From positions 22,820 through 86,819 of the forward strand of contig JADGDU010000014.1 in assembly GCA_016744705.1 (NCBI GenBank): a stretch of DNA of 64,000 nucleotides, in the 5' to 3' direction. Below the pieces are notes generated by a model that did not search any database, was not told where the DNA came from, and saw nothing but the letters and a program-made list of their open reading frames with translations. The position numbers and the translations under genes were made by a program. The DNA comes from Candidatus Krumholzibacteriia bacterium (GTDB taxonomy: Bacteria > Krumholzibacteriota > Krumholzibacteriia > LZORAL124-64-63). Positions 1,645 to 58,556 of the stretch are shown here, in pieces (the first letter of the stretch is position 1; every line of letters starts with the position of its first letter).

Positions 1645-1721
1645 TGGCTGAAGCGAAAGACTGCGATCACAATAATACCCTTGACAATTTTTTCTAGATT
1701 ACGCATTCTGCGTTACACGAG

Positions 1722-2864: not shown

Positions 2865-2896
2865 CTCCAAATCTCGATTTGGAAGGGAAATAATTA

Positions 2897-5804: not shown

Positions 5805-5823
5805 AGGGAAAAAACAGGGAAAG

Positions 5824-6477: not shown

Positions 6478-6543
6478 ACTTGACCTCACAACCAAAATTT
6501 ATTGACTCAGGAAGACCCCCTTGAACCCACGCCCGGAGAAATA

Positions 6544-8120: not shown

Positions 8121-9161
8121 ATGAGGATCCTATCCATCACGCTTCTGATCCTGGTCATTGCTCTTGAGGCACCTGCGGGTGACTTGGGGAATCGCGCATC
8201 ACAAAAGCCAACCGCCGCACCCACCCCCTTGCCAACACCTCTGCTCGAAATTCTCCGACAGGGCGGCGATACCATTGCCGATGCCACACCCATTGTGGTA
8301 AATACCCTTGATCTTGCAGGCAGCACCACGGGCTACACAGATGACTACGATGTGGCGTGTCCCTACTGGGAGGGGCCTCCCGCTCCTGATGTGGTCTATT
8401 CGCTGCTCTCTGAGAGCGACCAGCTCGTTGATGTGGACATGTTCGGGTCCCAGTTCGATACCAAAATCTGGGTGTGGGACGAAAGCCTCTCCTGGCCCAT
8501 CGCCTGCAACGACGATTATTATGAAGATTACACCTCCCGGATTAAGAACATGGCCCTATCCGCAGGCGAACTTTATTACATTGTCGTTGATGGGTATGGT
8601 GAGCATGGTGGGTACCTCATTGATGTGGTGCCGAGCGACAATTGCAATATTGATTGCCCCGCCGGTGCAGCAATTGAAGGCGAACCTTCGCTTCAGGCTG
8701 ACTACGTCGACTTGCACAATGGAGGCTGCAACACAGACGGAGTCGATCCCCCGTTACAGGAGATCAACAGCACAACATTTTGTGGAGTGAGTGGCTGGTA
8801 CCTCAACGGTGGAGACCTGTATCGCGACACGGATTGGCTGACCATCCCAATCCCTTCCGGTGGAATACTGGAAGTAACGCTAGAGGCGAAGGCGGATACC
8901 CGGCTGCTCGAAATTGGTCCCCAGGAGTGCGGTGCGGTGGACATTTTGCAGGAAGTGACCAGTGTGGATTGTGAAACCCCAACTCTCACCGTGGCCGGAG
9001 AAGCCGGCACCACTGTGTGGTTGTGGGTTGGGCCGGCCGGTTATTATCCCAGTAATATGCCCTTTGATGCTTTCGAATACGACTATGTCCTAACAACCAA
9101 TCTGGGGACAGTGGCTACCGATGAGCAAACCTGGTCGGGAGTGAAGGCCATGTACCGTTGA
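8121..9161 (+). CDS. Secreted protein with two pre-peptidase-C-terminal (PPC)-like domains and a C-terminal ...TDEQTWSGVKAMYR tail
   Basis: Signal peptide (LEAPAG). PPC-like signature DTKIWVWDE..IACNDDYY..GELYYIVVDGYG..GGYLIDV. The protein ends KAMYR. Confidence 0.75.
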   Translation: MRILSITLLILVIALEAPAGDLGNRASQKPTAAPTPLPTPLLEILRQGGDTIADATPIVVNTLDLAGSTTGYTDDYDVACPYWEGPPAPDVVYSLLSESDQLVDVDMFGSQFDTKIWVWDESLSWPIACNDDYYEDYTSRIKNMALSAGELYYIVVDGYGEHGGYLIDVVPSDNCNIDCPAGAAIEGEPSLQADYVDLHNGGCNTDGVDPPLQEINSTTFCGVSGWYLNGGDLYRDTDWLTIPIPSGGILEVTLEAKADTRLLEIGPQECGAVDILQEVTSVDCETPTLTVAGEAGTTVWLWVGPAGYYPSNMPFDAFEYDYVLTTNLGTVATDEQTWSGVKAMYR

Positions 9162-16322: not shown

Positions 16323-16834
16323 TATATCAACCCCACTCCCAGGAAGACGGAACCTTTGTTGATGTTATCCGATCCGAAGGATTCGTCTTCATAAAAATTG
16401 GTTGTGGATACACCAACGAAACATGACATGTACCGCCCTAAAACGACTTCTAGCCGGAGGCGAGCATCGAGGGTGTAGAATTTATCGGTGTTGATAATGG
16501 GGTTGTCGGTACCACTGGGTAGAACATGGCGCAGGCCCACATCAGCGGCCACAAAAAGCCAGGGTTTGAGGGGAAAGCGGCGGCCAACATTCAACCCCAG
16601 AAAAAACGAAGCTTCACGGTCTTCAAACGCACTGAGTCCACCACAGGTGAGCTCGGTGTACCAAAGGTTGTGCGAAAATTGAAACCCTGTGGTGTATTGG
16701 GTGATTCCGCTCCAGTGGGTGACCCATTGGAAATCAGTCACGAAAGACAGGGACTCTTCTTCGGCCAGGCAGGCTGGGGGAAGATAGATAGAAAGTAAGA
16801 TCACGAGCACAAGGAAGTGACGACATCTGACCAT
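16322..16834 (-). CDS. Hypothetical secreted protein, probably OM-associated, translationally coupled to the 14961-16322 OMP
   Basis: Start taken at MVRCRHFLVLVILL (a signal peptide). Its stop overlaps the downstream ATG by 1 nt (TAATG). Confidence 0.5.
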   Translation of the reverse strand: MVRCRHFLVLVILLSIYLPPACLAEEESLSFVTDFQWVTHWSGITQYTTGFQFSHNLWYTELTCGGLSAFEDREASFFLGLNVGRRFPLKPWLFVAADVGLRHVLPSGTDNPIINTDKFYTLDARLRLEVVLGRYMSCFVGVSTTNFYEDESFGSDNINKGSVFLGVGLI

Positions 16835-16915
16835 GATCAGTTTTCCCCGCAAAAAGGGTGAATACAAAGACTATAAAGCAGAGAATACGATCAGCAAGAC
16901 ACGCTGGTCAAGGCT

Positions 16916-19900
16916 TTAACGAACAAGTGTAATTTTCTGTTCTGCAGTGGTTTGCCCTGATTTTGCTTTAACCAAATACACACCGCTTGCCATATTTCTG
17001 CCCTCATCATTTTGTCCATTCCAAGTCAGCCCGTGGCGTTTTCCGGTGGGAAGAATGCCTTGGAAAAGAGTCCGGATCTTGTGGCCACGAATATCAAAAA
17101 TTTCTATGAGAGACTGGCCGGAGGAAGTTTGAGGCAAGTTTAATTCGATGGTCACCCGAGGATTGAACGGGTTGGGGAAACAGCGCAAGTTGAGGTTTTG
17201 GGGAGCCGGGACATCGTCGGAGACGGCACTGATATGGGTGCTTCCGTAGTTGGTTTCAGTGTAGGAAACAGTGGCCTGCATAGCAGAGGTATCTGCATTG
17301 CGAATTTGCAGGAAACGGTAATTGTTGGGCGAGGGAATGGGCAGTGCAGAATCGCCGGGTTTCCAGCTTTCCCATTCGATAAATGACAGGTCATCGTACC
17401 AGCTGTAGCCGGTGTTGGAGGCTGGTGGTTCGTGTCCGCAACGCATTTCAAAATACACGGCGTTGTCAGGGGTTTCGAAATCTCGCCATTGGCGAACCCA
17501 ATCGGTGGATCCGTCCAAGGGGGAAGCCAGATCATATCCGGCTATGGGTGTTTCGGAATACCGGTCGCCATAAAAGCGAACCATGGTGCGGGCCTGGTAG
17601 GCATTGTCGGTGCGCAGCCAGGCCACGGCTGAATGTTGTTTGCTCGGGTCGCATGGCAGGTGTTTTTCAAGGTCGGTCCCGGTTTGGTCTGAAGCGTTGT
17701 CAAAGCGGCGCAAGCGCAGGCTTCTGTCTCCGCTGTGCACGATATCGGTGACTAAGGTTTCATCGTCGGTGTTCACATCCCAGGGGTCGGCTCCTTCGTC
17801 TTCAAAGCCACCGTGCCAAAGAATCTCTCGTCCCCAACGCACTTCCACAGCGCTGCTGATATCCATGGCTGATAAGTTGCCCATGCCTTCCAGTTTCAGA
17901 GGAGCTGAAATGGCGTACCCGTCGATATCTGTAAGAGAGACAGTGGTTTCTGTCGTGGTTAAGGTGGAGTCGATGCCCGCGCGACTGAGGTGAATGCGAG
18001 CTTCTTTCTCTTCCTGCATGGGGACCACGAGAGCATTCATGGGGCGGGAGTAATCGGCCAATCGCCCAATGATCTCACGGCTCAGGTTGCCGCTGACAGG
18101 TTCGGGGATGAAATGATTGATCCAGCCCGGAGTGAAACGGTAGCCGGTGATGCCGGTTTTTTCAATTTCGAGGGTCAGCACCATGGAAGGCATGGTTTCG
18201 GGATAATAAAGATCGAAAATGAAATTGCCCAAACTGTGGGCGATGAGTTTGCCGTTGTAAGATTCGAAGCCTTGCAGGACGTGGGGATGGTGGTTGATCA
18301 AAACATCGGCGCCCAGATCGATGGCTGCTCGGCGCAACTGGCGTTCGCCTGGAGAGGGTTCGTTGCGAAACTTGAATTGGGGGTCCCCTTCATGGATGGC
18401 GGCCGCTTCGGTGGGCAATGGGGAAGACGGTAATCCGGTAACAAATCCATCGGGGGTGGGAGCAGTTTCGTATTCGTCACCGCTGTGGGTTTGCACAATG
18501 ACCACATCGGAGAGAGGCCGTGTGTAATTGATGGAGCTTTCCAGATTTTCAGGCAGAAGGTAGGCGAAACCAGGCTTGTCGTATCCGGCGTCCAGAAATG
18601 GTTGAAAATTCCAAAGCCGGCCGGTGCGGTTGGACAGACCGAGGAAGCCAAGGCGCACTCCTTTTTCAGTCCAGAACGTGGGTAGCAGGGCCATGTATTC
18701 GGTGCTGCCTGCGCCGCTGTAAAGGATGTTCAGATTGTCCAAACTATCCATGGTGTCGAGCATGCCAATTTCACCATAGTCGACGATGTGGTTGTTGCCC
18801 AGGGTGACGACATCCACACCGGCGTAACTGATGCCGGTGATATTTTGGGGCTCGCTGCGGAAGACAACACTCTTGGTGGGGTGGGGCACACCGCGGTCGG
18901 TATACGGCACTTCGAGGTTGGCTACGTTGACGTCTGCCGCCTGGCCAAAGATTTCCAGAGTGGGGGTGTAGAGGGCTTCGATACCATAAGTGTCGATGAG
19001 CCCGCCGTTGTCTTCATAGCGGCGGCCGGTGAAAATGTCGCCTACAAAATTCACTGTCAGGGGGCCCTCTGGATCACCGGGGGAGACGGCAATCTGGCAG
19101 GTGTCGCCTGCGGCCATGAAGGTGGAATCGAGAACTTCCAGACCCACGGTGTAGGGGTGGTCGGCGTGGACTAGAAACTCGTGCATGGGATTTTGTTCGC
19201 GGGAAACGGTGCTGTCACCAAAATCCCAGGCCCAGGTGTGAGAGTCGGAATCCGGGTCAAAAACTTCACCGTGAAATTGCACTGAGAGGCGGTAGAGTTT
19301 GTCGGAAACCTTCTCCTGATCTTCCACGGTATACAGTATACGCGCCATGGGGGCTCGGGGTTGGTCTTCGGTCACATCGGCTATGGCATCAAAAAATGTG
19401 ACACCAGGGGAACTCGAATCGGCATCATTGACATAAATCAGTTGGTTCAGGTCGGGTTGGTATCCAAAAACCGTCTCCCAGTCACGACCGATAGGTAAAA
19501 GGTATAAGTGCCATTCATTACGCGAGTAAGCTCCCTGGTATACTGTATACCAGTTGGTGTTTTCGGGTAAATCACGACCAAAGAAGGTATAAAAGAGCTG
19601 ATTTTGTCCATCACTGATGCCAAAGGCCTGCATCTCTCCCAAATTCTCACCTGAGACGGCGATTTGCCAGACGGTGGTATCTGCCACGGACACTGATGAG
19701 ATGGTTTGGGTTTTCCAGGTATTGCCAAAAAGACGCAGGCTGGATCCGCTACCACCATAAGCATTATCGGTGGTGATCTGCCAATCGTCAGGTTCGATAT
19801 CCTGGTCAGAGTAAGACTTCAGAGTGGGTTCCAGGGTATCAAAGTTCTCGATGATGAGCCCACGGTTTTGGGCTAAAGCCGGGGTGCTAAACACCCAGGA

Positions 19901-19945
19901 AAAGCATCCCAGAAGAATCAACAAAGGGAGAAAAATTTTAGCCAT
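16916..19945 (-). CDS. CapA/PGA-capsule-type metallophosphoesterase-domain protein with a T9SS type-A C-terminal sorting domain
   Basis: Signal peptide. The central GDIFTGRRYE...TLGNNHIVDYG...ADVLINHHPHVLQGFE...HSLGNFIFD block is CapA-like. The last ~85 aa (FPNPFNP.VTIELNL...IFDIRGHKIRTL...SGVYLVKAK...KITLVR) form a T9SS CTD. Confidence 0.8.
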   Translation of the reverse strand: MAKIFLPLLILLGCFSWVFSTPALAQNRGLIIENFDTLEPTLKSYSDQDIEPDDWQITTDNAYGGSGSSLRLFGNTWKTQTISSVSVADTTVWQIAVSGENLGEMQAFGISDGQNQLFYTFFGRDLPENTNWYTVYQGAYSRNEWHLYLLPIGRDWETVFGYQPDLNQLIYVNDADSSSPGVTFFDAIADVTEDQPRAPMARILYTVEDQEKVSDKLYRLSVQFHGEVFDPDSDSHTWAWDFGDSTVSREQNPMHEFLVHADHPYTVGLEVLDSTFMAAGDTCQIAVSPGDPEGPLTVNFVGDIFTGRRYEDNGGLIDTYGIEALYTPTLEIFGQAADVNVANLEVPYTDRGVPHPTKSVVFRSEPQNITGISYAGVDVVTLGNNHIVDYGEIGMLDTMDSLDNLNILYSGAGSTEYMALLPTFWTEKGVRLGFLGLSNRTGRLWNFQPFLDAGYDKPGFAYLLPENLESSINYTRPLSDVVIVQTHSGDEYETAPTPDGFVTGLPSSPLPTEAAAIHEGDPQFKFRNEPSPGERQLRRAAIDLGADVLINHHPHVLQGFESYNGKLIAHSLGNFIFDLYYPETMPSMVLTLEIEKTGITGYRFTPGWINHFIPEPVSGNLSREIIGRLADYSRPMNALVVPMQEEKEARIHLSRAGIDSTLTTTETTVSLTDIDGYAISAPLKLEGMGNLSAMDISSAVEVRWGREILWHGGFEDEGADPWDVNTDDETLVTDIVHSGDRSLRLRRFDNASDQTGTDLEKHLPCDPSKQHSAVAWLRTDNAYQARTMVRFYGDRYSETPIAGYDLASPLDGSTDWVRQWRDFETPDNAVYFEMRCGHEPPASNTGYSWYDDLSFIEWESWKPGDSALPIPSPNNYRFLQIRNADTSAMQATVSYTETNYGSTHISAVSDDVPAPQNLNLRCFPNPFNPRVTIELNLPQTSSGQSLIEIFDIRGHKIRTLFQGILPTGKRHGLTWNGQNDEGRNMASGVYLVKAKSGQTTAEQKITLVR

Positions 19946-20721: not shown

Positions 20722-21300
20722 CTATCGGTAAAGGCTTTTGATGCCACCCAAGGTGGACCCTGTGGTGGGAACAGTGCAATCTCCATAAATGGTAGAGGAG
20801 GGGCCATCGCTTCGACTGACTCCAGCTATCATCAATTCTTCGTTTTCCAGTAATAAAGTGGGGAAATCTGGGTTAATGGAGCTTGGAGTGGTGCCGTGCA
20901 TGTAGAAATCCACAGGGTCGCAGCCATCATCATCCATGTACAAAACAGTGAGAGTAGCCAGAATATTGGCTTGCGTCATGGACGTGGGTTCGCCAAACCC
21001 GACGATGTTGTTACCAATAATACCAACATCGATGACTTGCGGGTTAGTATAAATCATGGATGTAAACAGAGCCGTGCCATCCATGTGGAAGCCCACCTCG
21101 AAGCCGTACAAAAATTCAAAGGTCGGGTTCACGAGAGTCAGGTACATGGTGACGCTGGAGAAGGGGGGAACATTATAGATGGAATAAACATCCGCGTCTT
21201 GATCGAAGTAGAATCCCATCATGTTGTCGCCTGGTTCCACAACGGCAGAAGAAGATGAAGCGATCAGCAGGAACGATAAAATTATGAACAGTTTTTTCAT
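20722..21300 (-). CDS. Small secreted protein ending ...TTGSTLGGIKSLYR
   Basis: ATG at 21300 after GGAGAAAATC. Signal peptide MKKLFIILSFLLIASSSSA. No known domain. The C-terminus shares the K-x-[ML]-Y-R tail. Confidence 0.65.
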   Translation of the reverse strand: MKKLFIILSFLLIASSSSAVVEPGDNMMGFYFDQDADVYSIYNVPPFSSVTMYLTLVNPTFEFLYGFEVGFHMDGTALFTSMIYTNPQVIDVGIIGNNIVGFGEPTSMTQANILATLTVLYMDDDGCDPVDFYMHGTTPSSINPDFPTLLLENEELMIAGVSRSDGPSSTIYGDCTVPTTGSTLGGIKSLYR

Positions 21301-21827: not shown

Positions 21828-21850
21828 TAGTAGAATTGAGGATGGTGTTT

Positions 21851-24190
21851 ATGAAAAGACCCTGGCTTGGCAGTATCGCCACAACCCGCCTGTCCCTGTG
21901 GATCGGGTATGGTTTGCTGGGTTTGGTGGTCATTTCGGCGCCGGTGCTTGCTGCAAAGTTGGCGACCGTCCTACAAACGTCCCACTGGAGGCAGGTCACC
22001 GATCCGGTTTACCCTTTGCCTCCAGAAGAAGATGGTAGCCATGTGGTTTCGCTCACGGGCAGCCGGCCTATCAGTTTGGCCTCACCCCACCCGGATTTTG
22101 TACGTGTGGATGAATACACATTTAGCACACGCTTCCCCTGGAATTGGGATGGCGCCCGCACCGTCGTCTTTGCTGATGACCTGGGCGAAGAAACCACAGT
22201 GGAGGTGGCCCCTGGTTTAACGGTGCCCTTCGCACCTCTGGATCACGAAATCCCTGTGTTGCACATCTCTTGCGACTCCACCGCTCTCTGGGATCCCGCT
22301 GTTGGTATTTATTGCACCGGAAATTCCGAAAACTTCCTCCAGCGTGGATCCGACTGGGAACGCTCGGCCCGTTTTGAGTATTATTTACCCGGCTCAGGAA
22401 AAGTCATTGATGAGCCCATCGGTTTACGCATTCATGGGGGTTATGGGCGGTATTATTATCAAAAAGGTCTGCGCTTCTATTTCGATGATTATGGTAGCAG
22501 CGACCTTCTCAATTTTCCCTTCTTTGAGAGTGGCCCCACTCTTTTCGAACGTCTGATCGTTCGGGCCAGCCGTTATGACGACGCCTGCATCAATAGCAAT
22601 TTGGCGGAAACACTCTTCGCCGATTTGGGCCATCTGGCCAGTCGATACCAATTTGTGGCCCTCTACCTCAATCAGGAGTATTGGGGCGCCTACAGTTTGC
22701 GCGAACGTCTGGATGACGAATTTTTTCGAAGCACCTGGCAGCTGGGTTTTGGTGGTTTGAACATCATCAAGGATGGAGAAACCAAATATGGCAATGGTGA
22801 TAGTTGGTGGGATTTTCTGGAGAGCTTTTCCCAGGTTAACAACCCCAACAATGATCAGTGGTTTGATTCAGTCAGGACCAACCTTGATCTAGCCAGCTAT
22901 ATAGACTGGCAAATCATCAACATGTTCTGTGTAGCGGGAGACAATGGCTTTGCCTGGAATTTAGCCTTGTTCCAAACGGGTCAGGAACCCTGGCGTTTTG
23001 TAATGTGGGATGAAGATCTTTTGTTTGATTCCGACGATCTGAATACCAACATGTTTCGCTTTTTCACCAGCCGGAACGAAGAGGAGTGGAACCAGTATCG
23101 CGCCCCATCGGATCTGCGGGGTTGGAGCGCAGAAGACCAGCAATGGATGACCATGTTCCGCACTCTTTTGGGCAACGAAGATTTCCGCGATCTCTTCCGT
23201 GGGCGCCTGGAGCATCTGCTGGATGGGGCCATGAGCACGGACAACCTCATAGGCCGGGTCAACGGCCTGGCTGAAGACCAAATCCCCGAAATTCCAGGCC
23301 ATGCCCAGCGTTGGGAAGGCTTTGAAAGCCATTGGTACGAAAGTAACTTAGAGCGTACCCGTGGGTGGATAACGGAAAGACGCCCCCTATTCCTGGCCCA
23401 GGCCGATTCCTTTTATTCTGAATTTTCCATGCCCTCCCGATCCACGGATTTCACCGGCCTTTTCATCAATGAATTCTTAGCCAGCAACAACTCTTACGGT
23501 CAGGACGAAACCGGAGAATATGCCGGTTGGGTAGAGGTCTACAACGGTGGCTCTGCCGCCTTAAATCTGACGGGGTTGCACCTGACCAACGACCCAAATC
23601 AAACCACCAAATGGGAGTTTCCTGCGGTCATCCTGCCGGTGGGTGAGAGGTTGATTGTCTGGTGCGACGAAGATGCCGGCCAGGGTCCCTTGCACGCCAA
23701 TTTTGGGCTCAACAATATGGGTGGTTCCATTGGTTTGTATGGCCCTTTGGTCTTTGGCAATGAGGCCATTGATACCCGTGAATACGGACTGCAAACAACG
23801 GACGTGAGCGAAGGCCTGACCAATGATGGCGGCCACCTGTGGGCGGCTCTGGATCCCCCTACGTTCAACCGGGCTAACGGCGATTCCACCGATGTTCCGC
23901 CCTATGTGCCAGGAGGTGTGGTGTTCAATCAGAATTTCCCCAACCCGTTTAACGGGGGCACAACTCTGGAGTTTGGTCTTCCCCAGAGCGGTCATGTGCG
24001 CGTCAGTGTGTATGATGTTCGTGGCAGATTAGTCGGGACGATGGTGGATGAAAACCGGGCTGCGGGAATTCATTTGGTGCAGTGGGCGGGAGAGGATCAT
24101 TCTGGCCGGCCCCTGCCTTCAGGGCTGTATGTGGCTCGAATGCAATTTGGCGGAATAGAGAAGACCCGAAACATGACCTTGGTGCGTTAA
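21851..24190 (+). CDS. CotH-kinase-family protein with a lamin-tail domain and a T9SS type-A C-terminal sorting domain
   Basis: Signal-anchor at the N-terminus. CotH-like core (HGGYGRYYYQKGLRFYFDD...YLNQEYWGAYSLRERLDDEFF). LTD (INEFLASNNSYGQDETGEYAGWVEVYNGG...LHLTND). CTD (FPNPFNGGTTLEF...VSVYDVRGRLV...SGLYVARMQ...NMTLVR). Confidence 0.8.
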   Translation: MKRPWLGSIATTRLSLWIGYGLLGLVVISAPVLAAKLATVLQTSHWRQVTDPVYPLPPEEDGSHVVSLTGSRPISLASPHPDFVRVDEYTFSTRFPWNWDGARTVVFADDLGEETTVEVAPGLTVPFAPLDHEIPVLHISCDSTALWDPAVGIYCTGNSENFLQRGSDWERSARFEYYLPGSGKVIDEPIGLRIHGGYGRYYYQKGLRFYFDDYGSSDLLNFPFFESGPTLFERLIVRASRYDDACINSNLAETLFADLGHLASRYQFVALYLNQEYWGAYSLRERLDDEFFRSTWQLGFGGLNIIKDGETKYGNGDSWWDFLESFSQVNNPNNDQWFDSVRTNLDLASYIDWQIINMFCVAGDNGFAWNLALFQTGQEPWRFVMWDEDLLFDSDDLNTNMFRFFTSRNEEEWNQYRAPSDLRGWSAEDQQWMTMFRTLLGNEDFRDLFRGRLEHLLDGAMSTDNLIGRVNGLAEDQIPEIPGHAQRWEGFESHWYESNLERTRGWITERRPLFLAQADSFYSEFSMPSRSTDFTGLFINEFLASNNSYGQDETGEYAGWVEVYNGGSAALNLTGLHLTNDPNQTTKWEFPAVILPVGERLIVWCDEDAGQGPLHANFGLNNMGGSIGLYGPLVFGNEAIDTREYGLQTTDVSEGLTNDGGHLWAALDPPTFNRANGDSTDVPPYVPGGVVFNQNFPNPFNGGTTLEFGLPQSGHVRVSVYDVRGRLVGTMVDENRAAGIHLVQWAGEDHSGRPLPSGLYVARMQFGGIEKTRNMTLVR

Positions 24191-25992: not shown

Positions 25993-27900
25993 ATGTCTTC
26001 CATCACCAAGCCGGTCATAGCAATTTGCCTTCTATTGACAGCCTCTCTGGCTGGCGCCCAGAGCCTTCCCGATGATGAATCAAGCATGTTCACTGGCTCG
26101 GGAAATTGTGCCATGTGCCATTCCAGCGATGGTTCGTCTAACACTGAAAACGGCGTCGACATCTCCATGCCCACCCAATGGCGGAGCACCATGATGGCAA
26201 ATTCTGCCAGGGACCCTCTGTGGCGTGCCAAGGTTTCAGCTGAAATTGACGAATTTCCCCATTTGCAGGAACACATTGAAGCCACTTGCACCCGGTGTCA
26301 TGCCCCCATGGCTCACGAACAAGCTATGCATGACGGCCAAGCCAATTATTCCCTGGCAGAAATGGAGAGCAACCCGCTGGCTCTTGATGGAGTCAGTTGC
26401 ACTCTTTGCCACCAGATAGAGCCGGATAATTTTGGCTTACCCCAGAGTTATTCAGGAAACTTTGAGCTTGATGAAGTGCGTCAGATTTACGGGCCATACA
26501 CCAGTCCCTTAACTGGCCCCATGATGAACAATTCCAATTTCACTCCGGAGTATGCCCAACACCTGGGAGAGTCGGAACTTTGCGCCACCTGCCACACTCT
26601 GTTCACGGAATCAGTGGACGATGATGCCCAACTGCGGGGTGCCTTCCCTGAACAGACTCCGTATTTGGAATGGAAGAACAGCACCTTTGGGCAGAACAAT
26701 GTAGCTTGCCAGGCTTGCCATATGCCCGTGGCCAATACGGCCCAGGATATTGCCACCCGACCTGGTTGGCACAACGTCACTCGTGAACCCTATGCCAAAC
26801 ACGAATTTGTGGGGGCTAATGAGTTCATGTTGAATATTTTGAAAAGCAACATCAGCGAGTTAGGCCTTTCGGCTTCAGAGGCCCAATTCGAAGCCACCTT
26901 GGACCGTACCCGGGATATGCTGGAAAATCAGACTGTGGGTTTGTCGGCCATGCACAATCTGGTGGGCGATACCTTAGCTATTGATTTGAGGGTGGAAAAT
27001 TTCTGTGGCCACAAACTGCCTACGGGTATTCCTTTGCGCCGCATGTGGGTGCATTTGAAAGTTGTGAGTGGTGAAGAAGAACTCGTTTTTGAATCGGGAA
27101 ATTGGGATGAAAACGGAGAAGTAGTCGGCCTTGATGAGGGATACGAGCCCCACCACAACATGATCAATGACCCGGACCAGGTTCAGATTTACGAACCGAT
27201 CATGATGGATGCCAACGGTGACCAGACGCACACTCTTCTGCGAGCTTCGGCTTACCTCAAAGACAATCGTTTGCCCCCCATGGGATTCACTTCCAGTCAC
27301 ACCGCTTACGATAGCACCGCCATTGAAGGGCTGGCCCTTCAGGATCCTGATTATAATATCAGCAACGGTGCCGAGGGCAGTGGTTCGGATATCGTCCACT
27401 ACCGTATTCCTGTCACTTCGCAGGGGCCGTTCAGGGTTGAAGTTCAAGCGTGTTATCAAACTCTTTCGCCCCGGATGTTTGCGGACATCGCTTCTCATGA
27501 TACTCCTGAAGTGCATGTCTTTGCTCCCATGTATGAATCGGCGGACAAGGCCCCTTCCATACTGGGCAATCTGACTCTCACAATCGACACTGTTTCAGGG
27601 GTGGAGCACGGCAGCTTGCCCCTTCCGCTTCGCCTGAACCAGAACGTACCCAATCCCTTTAATCCGGCCACCCTGATTTCCTATGATCTGAGAAGCCAAC
27701 AAGCAGTGCGGTTGGATATTTTTGACATGTCCGGCCAGTTGGTACGGCACCTGGTTTCAGAAACCCAAGCGGCCGGGTCATACAGCACGCTTTGGAATGG
27801 CGCCGATGATCACGGTGGGGCCGTGGCCTCGGGTCTGTACCTTTACCGGCTTAGTGCGGGGGAGCATCAGGAAAGCCGGCGCATGACGTTGGTGCGTTGA
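25993..27900 (+). CDS. Pentaheme c-type cytochrome with a T9SS type-A C-terminal sorting domain
   Basis: Signal peptide. Five CxxCH motifs in the first ~260 aa (CAMCH, CTRCH, CTLCH, CATCH, CQACH). C-terminal CTD NVPNPFNPATLISYDL...IFDMSGQLV...SGLYLYRL...RMTLVR. Confidence 0.8.
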   Translation: MSSITKPVIAICLLLTASLAGAQSLPDDESSMFTGSGNCAMCHSSDGSSNTENGVDISMPTQWRSTMMANSARDPLWRAKVSAEIDEFPHLQEHIEATCTRCHAPMAHEQAMHDGQANYSLAEMESNPLALDGVSCTLCHQIEPDNFGLPQSYSGNFELDEVRQIYGPYTSPLTGPMMNNSNFTPEYAQHLGESELCATCHTLFTESVDDDAQLRGAFPEQTPYLEWKNSTFGQNNVACQACHMPVANTAQDIATRPGWHNVTREPYAKHEFVGANEFMLNILKSNISELGLSASEAQFEATLDRTRDMLENQTVGLSAMHNLVGDTLAIDLRVENFCGHKLPTGIPLRRMWVHLKVVSGEEELVFESGNWDENGEVVGLDEGYEPHHNMINDPDQVQIYEPIMMDANGDQTHTLLRASAYLKDNRLPPMGFTSSHTAYDSTAIEGLALQDPDYNISNGAEGSGSDIVHYRIPVTSQGPFRVEVQACYQTLSPRMFADIASHDTPEVHVFAPMYESADKAPSILGNLTLTIDTVSGVEHGSLPLPLRLNQNVPNPFNPATLISYDLRSQQAVRLDIFDMSGQLVRHLVSETQAAGSYSTLWNGADDHGGAVASGLYLYRLSAGEHQESRRMTLVR

Positions 27901-29123: not shown

Positions 29124-30236
29124 TTATTGCTCGGCAGTCCTGGTCTGCTGGACTACAATTTTAAAGAAACCAAAGCCAGGGTAAAAGAGAGACAGTGTTT
29201 CAGGGTCGTAGAGTTCTGGAGCTTGGTTTTCCTGAAGAAATGTCCCCTCCCATTGGAAGTTATCATCGTTGGCATAGTCTGCGTAGATGTCTTCACTGGC
29301 GTTGAATGGCTGCGGGAATATCAAGGGGAAAAACAACAATCCCCTTTCCAGGTCAAAGGTAAAATCAACCATAAAATCTGCAAATCCATCGGGCCCTAGA
29401 GAACCATCCTGGCCCAGTTTGTCCAGTCCAAAAAGTTGAATATAGGGAATGGCGTTTTCATCCAATTCGGGAGATGAGCTGTTATCGTTCCGTTCAATTT
29501 TTAAACTGACTGAGTCGATATCGATATGGGAAAACCCCAAAGAATAGATATTCCTTACAACGTAGAAGAAGGTAAAGGGCTCTTGCCTGTCCTCTGGGGC
29601 CTTCAGGATTTTCATGCGGTAATAGGGACCCTCTTCGTTGGGCAGGTGGATACGGTCATCATCATCCCATCCGGGGCGGTCACCAATTTTATAGTGTATT
29701 TGGCCGTCCTGGCTTATTACGTCGTAAGTCACCGCAAAAACGTCTTGGGGCGCCATTTGTCGACCAAGGTCCACCGCAACAATTCCGCCATCAATGTCCA
29801 AAATAAATTCAAAATCAACTTCCCTCCAACGCGGGCCGTATAGATACGGATCGGAAAAGTCAGGTGCAGGGCTCTCTCCTGTGCTCCAAAACACTCCAGT
29901 TGAATCAATATAGGCCGCCACGTTTTGCACATCATTTGGTCCCCATACTCCTGCTCCCATCAATTGGAAAATTGCGATGGAGGAGGGGTCAATAATGAGG
30001 GCCGAGGGGTCACGGCCAGGTACGTCATGGACAGGGACACCAAAATAGGGTGGCAGGTCTAAAAAGAAGAACTGATTGTTCAGATAATTGCTGGAGAGGA
30101 TGGAGTGTTCTTCGATGACGATAGTTTGGCCCGGGAGGTCTTCAGGTGAGGCGCAATCATCATCACATCCATTGAGTAGAAACATTGCCAGTACCAAAAA
30201 TATGGCAGTGGAAAAATAAGTGTATCTTTTTTGCAT
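29124..30236 (-). CDS. Hypothetical lipoprotein
   Basis: ATG at 30236 after AAGGAGA. Lipobox LLNGC|DDDC. No recognised domain. Confidence 0.55.
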   Translation of the reverse strand: MQKRYTYFSTAIFLVLAMFLLNGCDDDCASPEDLPGQTIVIEEHSILSSNYLNNQFFFLDLPPYFGVPVHDVPGRDPSALIIDPSSIAIFQLMGAGVWGPNDVQNVAAYIDSTGVFWSTGESPAPDFSDPYLYGPRWREVDFEFILDIDGGIVAVDLGRQMAPQDVFAVTYDVISQDGQIHYKIGDRPGWDDDDRIHLPNEEGPYYRMKILKAPEDRQEPFTFFYVVRNIYSLGFSHIDIDSVSLKIERNDNSSSPELDENAIPYIQLFGLDKLGQDGSLGPDGFADFMVDFTFDLERGLLFFPLIFPQPFNASEDIYADYANDDNFQWEGTFLQENQAPELYDPETLSLFYPGFGFFKIVVQQTRTAEQ

Positions 30237-30250
30237 GCTTTTTCTCCTTG

Positions 30251-30877
30251 TTACCATTCATCGATCCAGAGAATGCCATCCGTGCAGACGAAATCCAATT
30301 TCTGTGTGGGAAGATAGAAACCGGGCTCGCAGGAAAGGTTGTAGTATTCATCGTACTCGGGAGTGCCTGGTCCCAAGTTTCCGTTGATGGTGTGGAGGCT
30401 ATCCGAACAGACATAATTCATTTGTTCTTCAATGAGAATGTGGCCATTTCCGGAAAAGGAATTTTCGGTGGTGGTGATTGATTCCCAGACAATGACAAAA
30501 GGCAGGGGCTCGGTACCAATGAAAGTCAGATTGGTTTCCTCTACCAGGACTCCAGCCAGACTCAAGTTGTTCCCAGTGGCACGGTGCTCGCCTGGAGTTA
30601 ACAGTTCGTGGAAATCATCTCCGGAACTCCACAAATAGAATGATACACGAGGACTATTGAAATCCGCAGCACCCGAAAGCCTAATTTCCATGATGTAGAG
30701 TTCACTGCCATAAGTGTCAGTCTGTTTAATAATTGAGACTTTGGAGTATTCATAAGAGTACGATTCACCGTAGAACTTAAAGGCATTGCCATCTGGCGCG
30801 GAGGGTTTGGTGCTGTCGCTACAGGAACCTAAAAACAAGAGAACAGAAATCAGAACCAGGGCTGGCGTATTTCGCAT
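30251..30877 (-). CDS. Hypothetical lipoprotein
   Basis: Signal peptide with a lipobox (LFLGSC|SDS). No recognised domain. Confidence 0.55.
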   Translation of the reverse strand: MRNTPALVLISVLLFLGSCSDSTKPSAPDGNAFKFYGESYSYEYSKVSIIKQTDTYGSELYIMEIRLSGAADFNSPRVSFYLWSSGDDFHELLTPGEHRATGNNLSLAGVLVEETNLTFIGTEPLPFVIVWESITTTENSFSGNGHILIEEQMNYVCSDSLHTINGNLGPGTPEYDEYYNLSCEPGFYLPTQKLDFVCTDGILWIDEW

Positions 30878-31049: not shown

Positions 31050-32132
31050 TCAGCGATACAACGTTTTAATCCGATTCAAAGTCTGCTGCTGGGAAGTCAC
31101 AGGCCCGCAATCGGTGCATCCTTCTCCCAAGGCTCCCATGGGTCCACAATCGTTGTTGTGCTCCAGAGCGGTGGAGAGTTCACAAAGTGTGAATACAGAT
31201 AAGGGGTGGTCGCAATAAAGAGGATCCCCTACAAATTCATGAGTTCCCAGTTCAGAACCATCCACCGGGCCACTCTCGTTGTTGAAATATAGATTACAGG
31301 AGCGCAATTCCGGATATTCGGAAACCAGGCCGGGACCGCCCTTTGTATCGGTGATAATGTTGTTTTCAAAAATGGTGTTGGCGTTGATGCGCACCGCACC
31401 CAACCCGGAATTCACGTGAAAAGTATTGTTGGTGATGCTGCCGGTGGCATCTCCCTGAATGACCAGGGCCCCTTCTCCAAAACCAGTATTGTCCAGGAAG
31501 AGGTTGCCCCGGAAATCAAATTCACCCGAGTTGCAGTTCACGGCACCAGCAACACCATGGGATCTATTGTGGGCAAAAAAGCAATCCTCAACCAGTAGCC
31601 GGGCCCCAAAACCCATGCCGAGGGCGGCGCTGTGCTTGTCGCACTCATTTTGGATGAAGTCGCAACGAAAAAATGAACCGGTTGTCCCTTGGTGACGCAC
31701 ATGCACGGCATTGGAGCCGGATGCGTGGTTGTTCACAAAAGAGCAATCTTCCAGGGTGACATTGGCCTGTTGCCAAATGAGAAGAGCAGCGGCATCTTCG
31801 GCAAAACCATTGGAAAAAGTCAGTCCGCGCAAAACAACATCCACATCACCCTGGACCCGCATGATCAGTTGAGAATGGCCGCCATCAAGAGATGTGAGGG
31901 GGTGGCTGCAGGTGGCTTCGATGGTGATGCTTTTTTCAATCACAAGGCTTTCGGGGTAGGAGCCAGGCCCCAGAAGAATCAAGTCACCGGGTTGAGCAGC
32001 AGAGAGAGCGTCACCTAGGGTGGAAAACTGGCCAGAATTATTTTGACAGACGGTGACAGTGGCTGCTTGTAGGCCTGAAGTGAGGAAAAAGCAGACCGTA
32101 AGGAACAGTGTCCCTTTCCTGAGCATGGTCAA
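31050..32132 (-). CDS. Secreted right-handed beta-helix (pectin-lyase-fold) protein ending ...TSQQQTLNRIKTLYR
   Basis: Signal peptide. Repeated N-x-F/I-x-x-N beta-helix rungs (NNTFHVNSGLGAVRINANTIFENNIITD). Cys-rich cap. The C-terminus shares the K-x-[ML]-Y-R tail. Confidence 0.7.
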   Translation of the reverse strand: MTMLRKGTLFLTVCFFLTSGLQAATVTVCQNNSGQFSTLGDALSAAQPGDLILLGPGSYPESLVIEKSITIEATCSHPLTSLDGGHSQLIMRVQGDVDVVLRGLTFSNGFAEDAAALLIWQQANVTLEDCSFVNNHASGSNAVHVRHQGTTGSFFRCDFIQNECDKHSAALGMGFGARLLVEDCFFAHNRSHGVAGAVNCNSGEFDFRGNLFLDNTGFGEGALVIQGDATGSITNNTFHVNSGLGAVRINANTIFENNIITDTKGGPGLVSEYPELRSCNLYFNNESGPVDGSELGTHEFVGDPLYCDHPLSVFTLCELSTALEHNNDCGPMGALGEGCTDCGPVTSQQQTLNRIKTLYR

Positions 32133-54766: not shown

Positions 54767-56563
54767 ATGGTCAAACCAAAAATGAAAATACTCACTGTCG
54801 TTTTCCTGCTGCTTCTTTGGGCCACCGGAATTTCGGGTGCTTCGTTGGAGACGATTTATGAATTTTCGGCGGGCACCAAGACACCCAGTTATGACGAAAC
54901 GCTGGCCTGGTTTGATGACCTGGTAGCGGCCAGTGATTATCTGAAGCTGGAGTCATTTGGAACCAGCCCTCAGGGGCGCAAACTTCCTCTCATCATTGCC
55001 GACAGCCAGCAACGGTTTCGTGCGGACCAACATCGGAACCGTCAGGACGAAGTGGTGCTTCTGGTGCAGGCCTGTATTCACGCGGGAGAAAGTTGTGGGA
55101 AAGATGCAGGGATGTTGTTGCTTCGCCAGCTGGCCACCGACCCTGAATTGCGGGCAGAACTCCTGGACCAGATAACCTTGCTGTTCATTCCCATTTTCAA
55201 TGTGGATGGGCACGAACGGTTTGGGCCCTACGGTCGCATCAACCAGAACGGTCCTGATGAAATGGGCTGGCGAGTCACGGCGACCAACCAGAATCTCAAC
55301 CGGGATTTTTTAAAGGCCGATACTTTGGAAATGCGCCATTGGTTGGAGATGTACCAGCAGTGGCAGCCCGATTTTATGATCGACATCCACAGCACCGATG
55401 GGGCCGACTATCAGTACGCTATTACATATGGTCTCGAAACTCACGGCAATATGGATGTTGGCCTGACCCAATGGACCAATCAATATAGTGACGAGATGAA
55501 TGCCGTTATGAGCCAGGCAGATTTTCCCATGGCGCCATATGTCTCTTTCCGTCAGTGGCATGATCCGCGCAGTGGCTTGATCACCTGGGTGGCTGGTCCT
55601 CGTTATAGCCAAGGTTATACGGCGCTCCAGAACCGGCCGGGCCTGCTGATCGAAACCCACATGTTGAAAGATTATCCCACACGGGTTGAGGCGGCTTATC
55701 AATTGGTGGTGGAAACCATGGGGCACCTGAATGAAGAGGCGGGTGCGTTGCGAGAACTGGTGCTGAATGCCGATGCCCACACCGCCAGTGCGGCTTTTCG
55801 TGAGGAGCCCTTTGCTCTCAGTTTTAAATCCACCGAGAAGCATCGTCCTTTTAAATTTCTGGGGGTTTCCTATGAAAAAGTAAAAAGCGATATCACCGGT
55901 GGCGATTGGTTCCGCTTCAGTGGCGAACCAGAAACCATGATGATTGAGATGTATGATGATATGGAGCCCGACCAGACGAGCCACTTGCCCGAGGCCTATC
56001 TGATACCTCCGGAGTGGACGGTTATTATAGACCGTTTGTCATTGCATGGGATCCAGTTCCAGCGTCTGGCCAAAGAGGCGGAAGTGGAAGTGCGCAGCTG
56101 GCGTTTCCGAGATGCCAAGTGGCAGGAAAAACCCTATGAGGGGCATCACCCCGTGCGCTTTGAGATGGATCCGTTGCTGGAGAAGCGGATTTATCCTGCG
56201 GGAACGGTGGTGGTTGATATGAACCAAAGGGCGGCCAGGGTGGCGGCCCACATGCTCCAGCCCCAAGGGGCCGATTCTCTGGTGCGTTGGGGGTACCTGG
56301 ATGCCATCTTTGAACGGGTGGAATATGTGGAGTCTTATGTCATTGAAAATATGATTAGGGAAATGGTGGTTGAACAACCGGAATTACTAGTGGAGCTGGA
56401 GCAGCGAAAACTGGAGGATCCGGAATTTGCCAAAGACGCCTGGGCTATTCGGTATTGGTTTTACGAAAAAACGCCATATTACGACCAACGGGTAGGGGTC
56501 TATCCTGTGGGCTTGCTTGATGATAGAGAGTTCATACAGAAACAGATTGTTTTTGAAAAATAA
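54767..56563 (+). CDS. M14-family zinc metallopeptidase (carboxypeptidase-like) with a C-terminal extension
   Basis: Signal peptide. HAGE (HxxE). NVDGHE. IDIHS. About 600 aa. Confidence 0.7.
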   Translation: MVKPKMKILTVVFLLLLWATGISGASLETIYEFSAGTKTPSYDETLAWFDDLVAASDYLKLESFGTSPQGRKLPLIIADSQQRFRADQHRNRQDEVVLLVQACIHAGESCGKDAGMLLLRQLATDPELRAELLDQITLLFIPIFNVDGHERFGPYGRINQNGPDEMGWRVTATNQNLNRDFLKADTLEMRHWLEMYQQWQPDFMIDIHSTDGADYQYAITYGLETHGNMDVGLTQWTNQYSDEMNAVMSQADFPMAPYVSFRQWHDPRSGLITWVAGPRYSQGYTALQNRPGLLIETHMLKDYPTRVEAAYQLVVETMGHLNEEAGALRELVLNADAHTASAAFREEPFALSFKSTEKHRPFKFLGVSYEKVKSDITGGDWFRFSGEPETMMIEMYDDMEPDQTSHLPEAYLIPPEWTVIIDRLSLHGIQFQRLAKEAEVEVRSWRFRDAKWQEKPYEGHHPVRFEMDPLLEKRIYPAGTVVVDMNQRAARVAAHMLQPQGADSLVRWGYLDAIFERVEYVESYVIENMIREMVVEQPELLVELEQRKLEDPEFAKDAWAIRYWFYEKTPYYDQRVGVYPVGLLDDREFIQKQIVFEK

Positions 56564-56722: not shown

Positions 56723-57643
56723 ATGAGAAAATTTGTTATCGCTTTGTTGGCTGTCATGATGGTCACCGGTGCTGTATATGCATCTGACAAACCCGCCCTT
56801 GAGAAACCTGTTTTGCCTGTAGACATTAATGTTGATATCACCGAGAACGAACCCAACGACGATTGCACTATAGCCGACTATTTGACCGTAGATGACAACT
56901 ATATGGCTGCCATCGATCCTGCTGGTGATGAAGACTGGTTTGAAGTGTTTTACCCCGCTGGTGGCGAAGTGGCTTTCCAGACACATCCCGGTGATGTTAA
57001 TGATACCAAGTTGTACCTGTATGCTGATGACTGCGAAACTGAACTTGCATATAACGATGATGGTGGCGGACAGGGTTATTACAGCCTCATCGAGTATACT
57101 ATTGATCCCAATACCACATATTTTGTCAAAGTGACTGGTTTCAGCGGAACCACTCAGGGATCTTACTTCCTGACTATGGCTCTGGCCGATCCTCCTCCTC
57201 CTGCTCCTGAAAATGACACCTGCGAGGGCGCCCTGCCACTTCCTTTCGGAACTTTCGAGATTGATAACACCGGTGCTGCCGATGATTACAATCCTGGATC
57301 CGATGGTTGCACGGGATTCAACGCTCCTGGTCTTGACATTGTTTATTACATCGATCTGGTCGAAAACCAGCAAATTGAAGTCACTGCCGAATCCACTTTT
57401 GATACCTCCCTGTATCTGGTGACGGATTGTGCTGATGTTGAAAATAGCTGTGTTGTCGGAGCCGACGTTTATGGCGAACCTGAGCACATCATCTTTGATG
57501 CTGGTAGCAATCCCGGCCGTTATTATGTCATTTTTGATGGATTCAGTTCCACTGGTCAGGGAGTCTGGACCGTTTCAGTTCCCGAAGGCGTTGTGGCCAC
57601 TCAGGAGACCACTTTTGACAGCCTGAAGAGCATGTACCGGTAA
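56723..57643 (+). CDS. Secreted protein with two PPC (pre-peptidase C-terminal) domains ending ...TQETTFDSLKSMYR
   Basis: Signal peptide. First PPC (ENEPNDDCTIADYL...DEDWFEVF...DTKLYLYADDCETELAYNDDGGGQGYYSLI...YFVKVTGFSGTTQGSYFLTMAL). Second PPC (APENDTCEGA...DTSLYLVTDC...GRYYVIFDGFSSTGQGVWTVSV). Confidence 0.8.
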   Translation: MRKFVIALLAVMMVTGAVYASDKPALEKPVLPVDINVDITENEPNDDCTIADYLTVDDNYMAAIDPAGDEDWFEVFYPAGGEVAFQTHPGDVNDTKLYLYADDCETELAYNDDGGGQGYYSLIEYTIDPNTTYFVKVTGFSGTTQGSYFLTMALADPPPPAPENDTCEGALPLPFGTFEIDNTGAADDYNPGSDGCTGFNAPGLDIVYYIDLVENQQIEVTAESTFDTSLYLVTDCADVENSCVVGADVYGEPEHIIFDAGSNPGRYYVIFDGFSSTGQGVWTVSVPEGVVATQETTFDSLKSMYR

Positions 57644-57680
57644 TTTTTCGGTAAACTAAAAACTCTTTTATGAGTGATCC

Positions 57681-57716
57681 GCGGCCGCATCTTCAGTGAT
57701 GCGGCCGCTTTTTTTT
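57681..57716 (+). terminator. Rho-independent terminator (11-bp stem GCGGCCGCATC/GATGCGGCCGC, 6-nt loop, T8 tail)
   Basis: Perfect GC-rich inverted repeat immediately followed by TTTTTTTT, 38 nt after the stop at 57643. Confidence 0.85.
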
Positions 57717-57878
57717 GAGTTCAAAATGGGACTGCCTATTTCTTTTTTGAGTTGGAGACAATAGAATTAGTAAACTTGGTTAGTTGTAGTGATCGATATC
57801 GTGAAAATCCGAGGTATGGGGATTGCAGATTTTGGCTCGTGTTTGTCTTGGATATCTTTCAAACAAAGGGGAAAGAGC

Positions 57879-58556
57879 ATGGTCTGGAATTCCAGAATAA
57901 GAGTTTTGCTGGTGGGCCTCATTTTTTCGAGCCTGACTTTCTTGGTGGGATGCAGTGACGATTCCCCCGAAGCTCCCGAGGTGAGCGATCCACGTATTCT
58001 TCCGCCAACCGAAGATATTCTCATGCAAAACTACCTTACATCGGTGGTGGATATGTCCTATGACGACTTGGATTTCATCCTCCACGAAGAATTCAGGCTG
58101 GGGCTATTGCCGTCCACCATTGAGGATTGGGACGGATCAGGTAACCCCTTAGTGGGAGACCATTTCGACAAAGCAGCCATGCTGTCTATCCATGAAAACC
58201 TATTTGGCGAAATCGAGGGGATGGACGAACACGGTTTGGTTGTGTCGTATGTGGAGTCCATTTCCTTTGATGTTTTTGACAAGGTGAGGGACTGGGAACC
58301 GATTGCTGCGGGAAATGTTTTTTTTGAGGATTACCCCGAAGCGTATAGGGCCCGATACAGCGTCCTTATTCATTTCAACAATCCCGATTATCATCGCTGG
58401 GAAGTGGATCATATGCTGGATATCATTGTGCTGCCAGTGACCTTGGATGAGACCACGGGCTATCAATTGCTGGGAATTTACGGATATTCGCCATTTTCAG
58501 CCGCGGGAACGGAAGAGATTTCTTATGACGGTGTTCTGGCCATGTACAGGTTCTAA
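57879..58556 (+). CDS. Lipoprotein ending ...GTEEISYDGVLAMYRF
   Basis: ATG at 57879 after AAGGGG. Lipobox FLVGC|SDDS. No known domain. The C-terminus shares the x-[ML]-Y-R tail plus a terminal F. Confidence 0.65.
   Translation: MVWNSRIRVLLVGLIFSSLTFLVGCSDDSPEAPEVSDPRILPPTEDILMQNYLTSVVDMSYDDLDFILHEEFRLGLLPSTIEDWDGSGNPLVGDHFDKAAMLSIHENLFGEIEGMDEHGLVVSYVESISFDVFDKVRDWEPIAAGNVFFEDYPEAYRARYSVLIHFNNPDYHRWEVDHMLDIIVLPVTLDETTGYQLLGIYGYSPFSAAGTEEISYDGVLAMYRF

Follow-up and report, generated by a model that had tools for sequence, protein, structure and literature searches.

A short recurrent C-terminal tail on unrelated exported proteins of uncultured bacteria is a candidate localisation signal

Introduction

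Why should exported proteins with dissimilar bodies end in the same few residues? This question is raised by a stretch of 64,000 nucleotides from a Candidatus Krumholzibacteriia bacterium (contig JADGDU010000014.1 of assembly GCA_016744705.1, positions 22,820 to 86,819; hereafter the window), in which five genes, p1 to p5, encode proteins with a common C-terminal tail. An initial annotation, made from the letters of the window, had proposed this tail as a candidate sorting tag. Few sequence features help as much in predicting the surface proteins of uncultured organisms as C-terminal sorting signals do, and each known class of signal led to its machine, as with the sortases, the exosortases, the rhombosortase and the system of type IX secretion (T9SS).

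Here, we describe the tail in the window and in related genomes. It is locked to the C-terminus, appended by a flexible linker to many unrelated folds and as conserved as the bodies that bear it, and its carriers are signal-peptide proteins and lipoproteins of uncultured phyla of the Fibrobacterota-Chlorobiota-Bacteroidota (FCB) type. The tail is probably a modular, ~16-residue localisation signal that acts after Sec export and is read at the free C-terminus by a conserved envelope receptor.

Results

Five exported proteins of the window end in the same tail

Re-reading of all five open reading frames (ORFs) returned the C-termini just as the initial annotation had quoted them (Table 1). The start of p2, earlier placed at 57789, had to be moved to 57879, the ATG of a lipoprotein gene. 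Look-ups of the exact sequence of p5 from its TTG start, and of that of P0001, yielded no recorded entry. All five proteins begin with a hydrophobic, signal-peptide-like N-terminus, to which p2 adds a lipobox (LVGC), as had been claimed for the set. Tails are thereby found on 5 of about 55 window genes. Neither p2 nor p4 has any significant family match, and p4 matches nothing in Pfam or NCBIfam.

A six-frame translation of the window contains five instances of the pattern [VIL][KL]x[ML]YR and no more, and each of them stands directly at the stop of a long ORF. In contrast to these five, none of 300 shuffles contained a terminal motif, a mean of 0.001 terminal motifs resulted when the 30 C-terminal residues were permuted in the 94 ORFs with 150 or more residues, and the reversed window sequence had none. 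The shared ending is thus real and lies far outside what chance would give. Moreover, the tail codons vary synonymously (AAG/AAA, ATG/CTT/TTG, TAC/TAT and CGG/CGT/CGA/CGC/AGG), from which we conclude that conservation acts at the protein level. A DNA-level origin of the tails, as a repeat or an RNA element, was ruled out by the differences at synonymous sites.

The resemblance could also exist without any tag, through chance, through common ancestry of a longer C-terminal domain, or because the tail is an intramolecular structural cap. An all-against-all BLASTP comparison of the five proteins gave this explanation one foothold, namely a distant paralogy between the PPC-like bodies of p1 and p3 (about 23-27% identity). 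In all other pairs, similarity is confined to the last 14-21 residues. This confinement and the shuffle controls both argue against an untagged origin, to which we return below with the carrier bodies.

Table 1 Genes and C-terminal tails of the window, and window proteins with a T9SS-type C-terminal domain (CTD). Positions count from the first letter of the window.
Feature	Position	Strand	Description	Evidence
p1	56723..57643	+	secreted PPC-domain protein, 306 aa	PF04151 PPC match; gene call on ENA scaffold
p1 tail	57593-57640	+	VATQETTFDSLKSMYR	p1 C-terminus ...TQETTFDSLKSMYR
p2	57879..58556	+	NTF2-like lipoprotein, 225 aa, lipobox LVGC	ORF and gene call
p2 tail	58503-58553	+	AGTEEISYDGVLAMYRF, variant tail plus one extra residue	p2 C-terminus ...GTEEISYDGVLAMYRF
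p3	8121..9161	+	secreted protein with two PPC/collagen-binding-like beta-sandwich domains, 346 aa	ORF
p3 tail	9111-9158	+	VATDEQTWSGVKAMYR	p3 C-terminus ...TDEQTWSGVKAMYR
p4	20722..21300	-	small secreted protein, 192 aa, no known domain	ORF
p4 tail	20725-20772	-	VPTTGSTLGGIKSLYR	p4 C-terminus ...TTGSTLGGIKSLYR
p5	31050..32126	-	secreted right-handed beta-helix protein, 358 aa	ORF, gene call, Beta_helix/NosD Pfam matches
p5 tail	31053-31100	-	VTSQQQTLNRIKTLYR	p5 C-terminus ...TSQQQTLNRIKTLYR
1009-aa CTD protein	16916..19945	-	secreted protein, long T9SS type-A CTD, ends ..KITLVR	TIGR04183 27.9 bits
784-aa CTD protein	21836..24190	+	CotH/LTD protein, T9SS type-A / FlgD_ig CTD, ends ..NMTLVR	TIGR04183 28.8 bits; Pfam CotH, LTD, FlgD_ig
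635-aa CTD protein	25993..27900	+	multihaem cytochrome-like protein, T9SS type-A / FlgD_ig CTD, ends ..RMTLVR	TIGR04183 29.7 bits; Pfam FlgD_ig

The tail follows a strict consensus in unrelated body families

Homologues of p3 were gathered via the body and not via the tail. Nearly all of the 120 listed, many of them paralogues within metagenome-assembled genomes (MAGs) of Candidatus Krumholzibacteria, end in V-A-[TV]-E-x-H-[ST]-[WLF]-[ST]-x-[VI]-K-x-[LM]-[FY]-[RDNE]*. The relatives of p4, eight other homologues with 43-66% identity together with the identical database entry P0121, all end in ..[ST][FL][DG][GS][IL]K[ST]LYR. The general tail reads V-[AP]-[TV]-E-x-x-[ST]-[WFYL]-[GST]-x-[VIL]-[KL]-x-[LM]-[FY]-x-COOH. 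The conserved unit, given as about 15 residues in the initial annotation, comprises about 16 residues from V-A-T-E onwards, and the Tyr-Arg end is a local, lineage-specific version of a more general rule: an aromatic residue is followed by one variable residue, which is often charged (R, D, N, E).

With its ending ..GVLAMYRF, p2 has the most deviant tail of the five, and the YRF ending is common to p2 and its nearest relatives. Its lipoprotein family comprises 136 representatives at <=50% identity, 97 of them with lipobox-like sequences. The tail is present in 107; position -4 (counted from the last residue as 0) is L in 49 and K in 46 members. About ten members have no tail and stop at the body end (subfamily ..LLGQ.G..).

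Within the p3 family, the key tail positions are 0.88-0.98 identical. Mean column identities of tail and body are 0.67 vs 0.66 in the p3 family and 0.48 vs 0.41 in the p2 family. Across phyla, the conserved positions are E at -12, [ST] at -9, K at -4, L at -2 and the aromatic residue at -1, with strict spacing to the terminus.

The tail is locked to the C-terminus in several uncultured phyla

The DNA of 185,579 species-representative genomes was searched for [TAVIM]-E-x-x-[ST]-W-x-x-V-K-x-L-F-x-stop by means of a degenerate pattern, which carries about 37 bits and for which roughly nine chance matches were estimated. The scan yielded at least 120 loci of 8 kb from about 70 assemblies (853 kb in all), on which all our locus counts rest; the same pattern had zero matches in 2.9 million viral contigs. 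The source assemblies of the listed loci are all uncultured MAGs. By our own count of the deposited labels among these loci, they belong to Krumholzibacteriota/-ia (about 15), Eisenbacteria (about 12), 'uncultured Fibrobacteraceae' (about 11), Fermentibacteria including Sabulitectum (4), 'Gemmatimonadetes' (3), Latescibacterota (1) and unlabelled bacteria.

Some of these labels deserve caution. Canonical tails also occur on single short contigs of a Reyranella sp. MAG (L031), a Planctomycetota MAG (L022) and a Verrucomicrobia MAG (L121), all of which are probably mis-binned. Several 'uncultured Fibrobacteraceae' MAGs (loci such as L028, L046 and L115) are suspect as well; several encode the p3 family, which is otherwise typical of Krumholzibacteria, and the taxonomic labels of these MAGs look unreliable.

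The loci contain 139 tail-ending ORFs, whose bodies, after removal of the tail, fall into 66 BLAST clusters. Of the 139 proteins, 127 have a hydrophobic N-terminus; a contig edge truncates 15 of the 139. The initial annotation had expected enrichment of the motif at C-termini, and this is what we observe: in the 120 loci and the window, about 1.06 million ORF residues, the core motif is terminal in 146 cases and internal in 8. Exactly one residue follows the aromatic one in 139 of the 146, and 29 terminal cases lie outside the selection by the scan pattern. Tails found independently show the same consensus, with K(-4) in 15/15. Half of the eight internal motifs are tails with 5-8 extra residues or internal duplicates.

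Extra residues after the tail were also seen at loci L020 and L072. At L044 (Eisenbacteria OFTM309_3, about 1517-3145 and neighbours), four tail lipoprotein genes stand in tandem, and one internally duplicated protein keeps a degenerate internal tail (..ESSTWTQLLSLFDW..) besides its canonical terminal one. This arrangement suggests that body and tail duplicate as a unit and that the internal tail copy then decays.

The tail is predicted to extend beyond the fold of its carriers

To place the tail relative to the folded bodies, we used AlphaFold2 (AF2) models. In the model of p3 (95-sequence alignment, predicted local distance difference test (pLDDT) score of 87.9), the last strand ends at residue 326 and is followed by a predicted coil (327-337) and a short helix (338-343, WSGVKA) with a pLDDT of about 70. 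The p2 model (pLDDT 93; numbered on a 226-residue query beginning one codon upstream) has an alpha+beta body ending with the strand 193-203, which continues into a coil (204-216) and a helix (217-222, YDGVLA); here, the tail reaches a pLDDT of 89-97 and shows the same register as in p3. In both models, the tail thus appears as a linker and a short helix appended after the fold, on two unrelated bodies. Altogether, the carriers include three unrelated folds, namely NTF2-like (p2), tandem ColG-type collagen-binding/PPC sandwiches (p3, with ColG s3a-s3b as closest fold match) and the right-handed beta-helix (p5).

The concern, raised in the initial annotation itself, that the carriers might be paralogues with a longer shared C-terminal domain does not hold up against the 66 body clusters, the three folds and the modelled position of the tail outside the fold. 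The high pLDDT of the p2 tail may mean that it packs on its own body, as a structural cap would. However, the diversity of the carriers and the existence of tail-less and CTD-bearing members within the same body families speak against an untagged origin, which we regard as very improbable.

The predicted helix at W-x-x-V-K-x in two unrelated proteins also brings to mind a receptor-free amphipathic helix that binds the membrane directly, as the membrane-targeting sequences of MinD and FtsA or the C-terminal anchor of PBP5 do. Indeed, W, V, L and F/Y together with Lys/Arg are a composition typical of interfacial helices. The helical hydrophobic moment of the tail, however, is not clearly higher than in shuffled tails (0.336 vs 0.284 +/- 0.13), the strand moment is at the shuffled level, and the helix spans no more than about 6 residues. 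The position-specific conservation seen across phyla and the strict spacing to the terminus far exceed the demands of lipid binding, and lipoproteins would hardly require a second membrane anchor. Direct membrane binding is accordingly improbable as the role of the tail.

Searching the tail profile against PDB sequences returned a single, non-significant match (E 0.38), STAEDRWDTVKSLFD in Synechocystis sll1418 (2LNJ residues 147-161). It is an internal segment, 9 residues before the chain end of a function-unassigned protein, and is probably coincidental.

Tail and T9SS type-A CTD replace each other on orthologous bodies

The type-A CTD of T9SS cargo is a folded, Ig-like seven-stranded beta-sandwich of about 70-100 residues (PMC11285876, PMC10202324). 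Its final 13 residues are indispensable, as are the lysines of motif E; PorV is contacted by this motif (PMC10202324), and the Lys-containing last strand is essential (PMC11285876). Three proteins of the window carry such CTDs of ~80 residues (Table 1; the curated cutoff of TIGR04183 is 23 bits).

CTD-bearing body homologues exist for nine tail proteins among the listed loci. The clearest case is formed by the tail proteins of L070, L027, L062 and L113 and the CTD protein L103|5437-6495, which share 60-65% identity across the entire body. After the common ...GIFYDN[IL][NSE]F, the former end in ..VATExxSWSxVKxLF[DRE]*, whereas the latter continues into a CTD of ~95 residues (...NYPNPFNP...GQYRYVL...SMVLLK*). 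Likewise, P0253 of the p2 family has a T9SS-type CTD in place of the tail, and a body homologue of p5 in L061 ends in one. The CTD motif itself was found in 0/124 tail proteins. Tail and type-A CTD are thus interchangeable and mutually exclusive on orthologous bodies, and this exchange on near-identical bodies, a 'choice-of-anchor' behaviour, is the strongest argument for the tail as a localisation module. Moreover, CTD proteins are the commonest neighbours of tail genes in the loci, and every tail lineage sampled also shows T9SS-type CTD cargo in the same loci.

Tail and CTD have several properties in common: both lie at the extreme C-terminus of Sec-exported proteins of the FCB group, are modular on unrelated cargo, occupy the identical slot on orthologous bodies and occur in the same genomes, including the window. 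In addition, the invariant K(-4) of the tail, its L(-2) and its last residue, mostly R, may correspond to the conserved Lys near the end of the CTD and to the L-hydrophobic-basic residues that close it. In the sequence itself, the likeness of the tail to CTD ends is limited to L(-2) and the basic last residue. The tail differs in its 16 residues as compared to 70-100, in its predicted coil and 6-residue helix instead of an Ig-like beta-sandwich, in the lack of HMM or profile similarity, in its absence from Bacteroidota among the matches listed and in its much smaller cargo. Neither the five window proteins nor 10 canonical tail proteins matched TIGR04183 or PF18962, even at E-values up to 10; in these phyla, the CTD takes a FlgD_ig-like form (PF13860). 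The initial annotation was therefore right in stating that the tail is too short to be a T9SS CTD. An origin of the tail as a 'collapsed CTD' was rejected, given an hhalign probability of 0.1% and a weak resemblance on a CTD-end matrix (values below).

The tail differs from the known signal classes compared, and its neighbourhood names no partner

In LPXTG/sortase, PEP-CTERM/exosortase, GlyGly-CTERM/rhombosortase and PGF-CTERM/archaeosortase signals, a motif is joined by a hydrophobic transmembrane helix and a basic cluster. The tail resembles them in that a short, conserved motif recurs at the C-terminus of many unrelated exported proteins within a genome, is lineage-restricted and shows 'choice-of-anchor' behaviour. 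It differs in having no hydrophobic stretch, as had been recognised for the PEP-CTERM, LPXTG and GlyGly-CTERM types, and in ending one residue past an aromatic one; no NCBIfam sorting-signal model matched the tail proteins. The beta-signal of outer-membrane proteins (OMPs; ...Y-x-F) likewise has its aromatic residue at the C-terminal end of exported proteins or close to it, and the ..MYRF of p2 is similar to the ..LSYRF of a window OMP (14961-16322). The tail, however, has its aromatic residue in the penultimate and not in the last position (139/146), which upholds the earlier exclusion of a canonical beta-signal. In addition, its carriers are soluble folds and not beta-barrels, and it is predicted to be helical and lacks the alternating hydrophobic pattern of a strand. 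Type I secretion system (T1SS) substrates, in turn, lack an N-terminal Sec signal, in contrast to the 127/139 tail proteins with a hydrophobic N-terminal one. The tail thus lacks the defining features of each established class open to testing: T9SS types A and B, the sortase/exosortase type, the OMP beta-signal and T1SS. No model of Pfam-A or NCBIfam (release 20) covers it in either flavour at permissive E-values. In the full-text literature, searched also with the literal motif strings, we found no description of the tail, which is not proof that nobody has noticed it; plausibly, this silence is due to all carriers being uncultured.

The genes around the tails were searched for a partner. With the window neighbours as queries (the M14 carboxypeptidase, the SprA-like lipoprotein and others), phmmer found no recurrent partner, and all that the neighbour searches, Pfam annotation of recurrent neighbours included, brought up was T9SS-CTD cargo and members of the large TPR, sulfatase-TPR, kinase and S41-PDZ families. 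Fusions of a sulfatase (alkaline-phosphatase superfamily) with TPRs occur in 6/120 listed loci (L018, L055, L066, L004, L059 and L068) and adjoin the tail gene in three, at L018 4323-6842, L055 4066-6159 and L066 3198-4580.

Such neighbours lead to another explanation of the tail, as a docking or retention peptide that binds non-covalently to a common envelope partner (a scaffold, an S-layer, a PDZ or TPR protein, or a periplasmic chaperone or protease) and thereby tethers or regulates small proteins. A protein whose CTD is replaced by the tail would then be retained instead of secreted. C-terminal peptides are among the possible ligands of TPR domains, and a fixed distance to the free carboxylate, as in 139/146 tails, is typical of carboxylate-clamp recognition such as that by PDZ or TPR domains. 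The adjoining sulfatase-TPR fusions, an S41-PDZ tricorn-type protease among the neighbours and the presence of the tail on lipoproteins, which are already membrane-anchored, are also consistent with docking. However, the neighbours of the TPR, PDZ and sulfatase kinds are members of large families of paralogues and show no enrichment (TPR 4 and sulfatase 2 of 103 immediate neighbours), and the variable, often charged last residue is unlike that of classical PDZ ligands. On balance, we consider docking rather unlikely. Conceptually, short peptides read at the free end are known from the eukaryotic PTS1 signal (-SKL), which is read by the TPR domain of PEX5, and from PDZ and carboxylate-clamp recognition of C-termini. 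These are analogues only: they share with the tail a short, linear and portable peptide at a fixed position to the free carboxylate, and differ in kingdom and compartment, while the tail is longer, conserved to -15 and variable in its last residue.

Discussion

As set out above, the tail is probably a localisation signal read at the free C-terminus. A tail protein would first cross the inner membrane by the Sec or the lipoprotein pathway. The exposed peptide, made up of the short helix W-x-x-V-K-x, then L-[FY]-x and finally the free carboxylate, would then be bound by a conserved envelope receptor, which would decide on the final location, either export to the surface or attachment to the outer membrane or cell surface. 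In the leading version of this reading, which we hold tentatively, the tail is an alternative ticket into the T9SS route, which a PorV- or PorP/SprF-like shuttle specific to the lineage would read. What the Lys-containing last strand ('motif C-t.'/motif E) does in the CTD might then be done in the tail by the invariant Lys and the L-aromatic-R at its end.

Almost as likely is a separate, T9SS-independent machinery, in which a dedicated receptor, peptidase or transpeptidase recognises V-A-T-E...W-x-x-V-K-x-L-F-x-COOH and exports or covalently anchors the protein. It is favoured by the lack of sequence or profile similarity to any type of T9SS CTD, by the absence of the tail from Bacteroidota among the matches listed and by the different cargo of small proteins, many of them lipoproteins. 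Upstream of the helix, conservation continues for about 8 residues (V-[AP]-[TV]-E), which would suit a processing site. Against this stands that no candidate gene recurs beside tail genes, and that CTD cargo is present in every tail lineage sampled, so that independence from T9SS is not separable here. Should such a machinery exist, the tail could represent a fourth architectural class of C-terminal sorting signal, a possibility to which we give no more weight than to the machinery itself: short, non-hydrophobic and read at the free end, with neither a transmembrane helix nor a folded domain. In each genome of Krumholzibacteriota, Eisenbacteria, Fermentibacteria, Latescibacterota and allies, a non-T9SS receptor or enzyme would then use it to direct dozens of small secreted proteins and lipoproteins to the surface.

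Several observations weigh against a localisation signal of this kind and its T9SS-linked version. Tail proteins have a median length of 223 aa as compared to 704 aa for CTD proteins, so that the two groups may have different fates. Comparison of the tail profile with the CTD profile by hhalign gave a probability of 0.1%, and the last 8 residues of the tail score -13.8 on a CTD-end matrix, where CTDs reach +16.2 and ordinary C-termini -21.1. In P. gingivalis, an intact folded CTD is also needed (PMC11285876). None of the at least 120 matches listed comes from a Bacteroidota genome, which argues that the tail is not a general T9SS feature. A recurrent receptor or machinery partner was not found when 739 locus ORFs were clustered by BLAST, nor did a Pfam census of the 103 immediate neighbours reveal an enriched partner. 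Type-B CTDs use cognate PorP/SprF-like shuttles, whose gene is usually adjacent to the cargo gene (PMC10202324, PMC12618676); with no recurrent neighbour, the tail has no operonic partner of this kind (TIGR04131/PF13585). Furthermore, 23/107 tails of the p2 family are followed by 2-16 extra residues (e.g. P0138, P0139, P0157, P0164, P0169 and P0262), so that an exactly free end is not absolutely required. Finally, all tail hosts among the listed loci are uncultured MAGs.

By kind, the tail would belong to the C-terminal sorting signals, and it could prove categorically new if its machinery is independent. In no fewer than five candidate phyla, which are common in sediments, soils and sludge, it marks a large and as yet unannotated part of the exported proteome, and it raises the questions of what minimal information is recognised for outer-membrane transit in FCB bacteria and of whether a further sorting or anchoring machine exists. 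A C-terminally anchored hidden Markov model of the tail would improve annotation and secretome prediction for these phyla, and the natural variants of the p2 family, with extra residues or without tail, would be useful for probing the free-end requirement.

Other genes of the window

Directly upstream of the p1-p2 pair lies the gene of a secreted Peptidase_M14 carboxypeptidase (54767-56563, +), which is not recurrent beside other tail genes. Speculatively, trimming of the single post-aromatic residue by this enzyme would leave an OMP-like ...L-[FY]-COOH end.

Two genes downstream of p5, a 377-aa lipoprotein (29124-30257, -) shows a partial SprA/Sov match (TIGR04189, E 1.8e-14) of 52 bits at a cutoff of 200, covering residues 150-319 and profile positions 380-544 of 2319. 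It has no Pfam match on record, no sequence match in the PDB and no homologue in the 120 listed tail loci. It is preceded by a 208-aa lipoprotein of unassigned family (30251-30877, -).

Directly downstream of the 1009-aa CTD protein are the genes of a 181-aa secreted protein (16322-16867, -) and of a 453-aa protein (14961-16322, -). The latter ends in ...FLSYRF, an OMP-like beta-signal that resembles the ..AMYRF of p2; neither protein has a match in NCBIfam. The 635-aa CTD protein shows weak OmcA/MtrC and c7-type matches, which suggests that T9SS delivers a cytochrome to the surface of a Krumholzibacteria-like organism, where it would be exposed.

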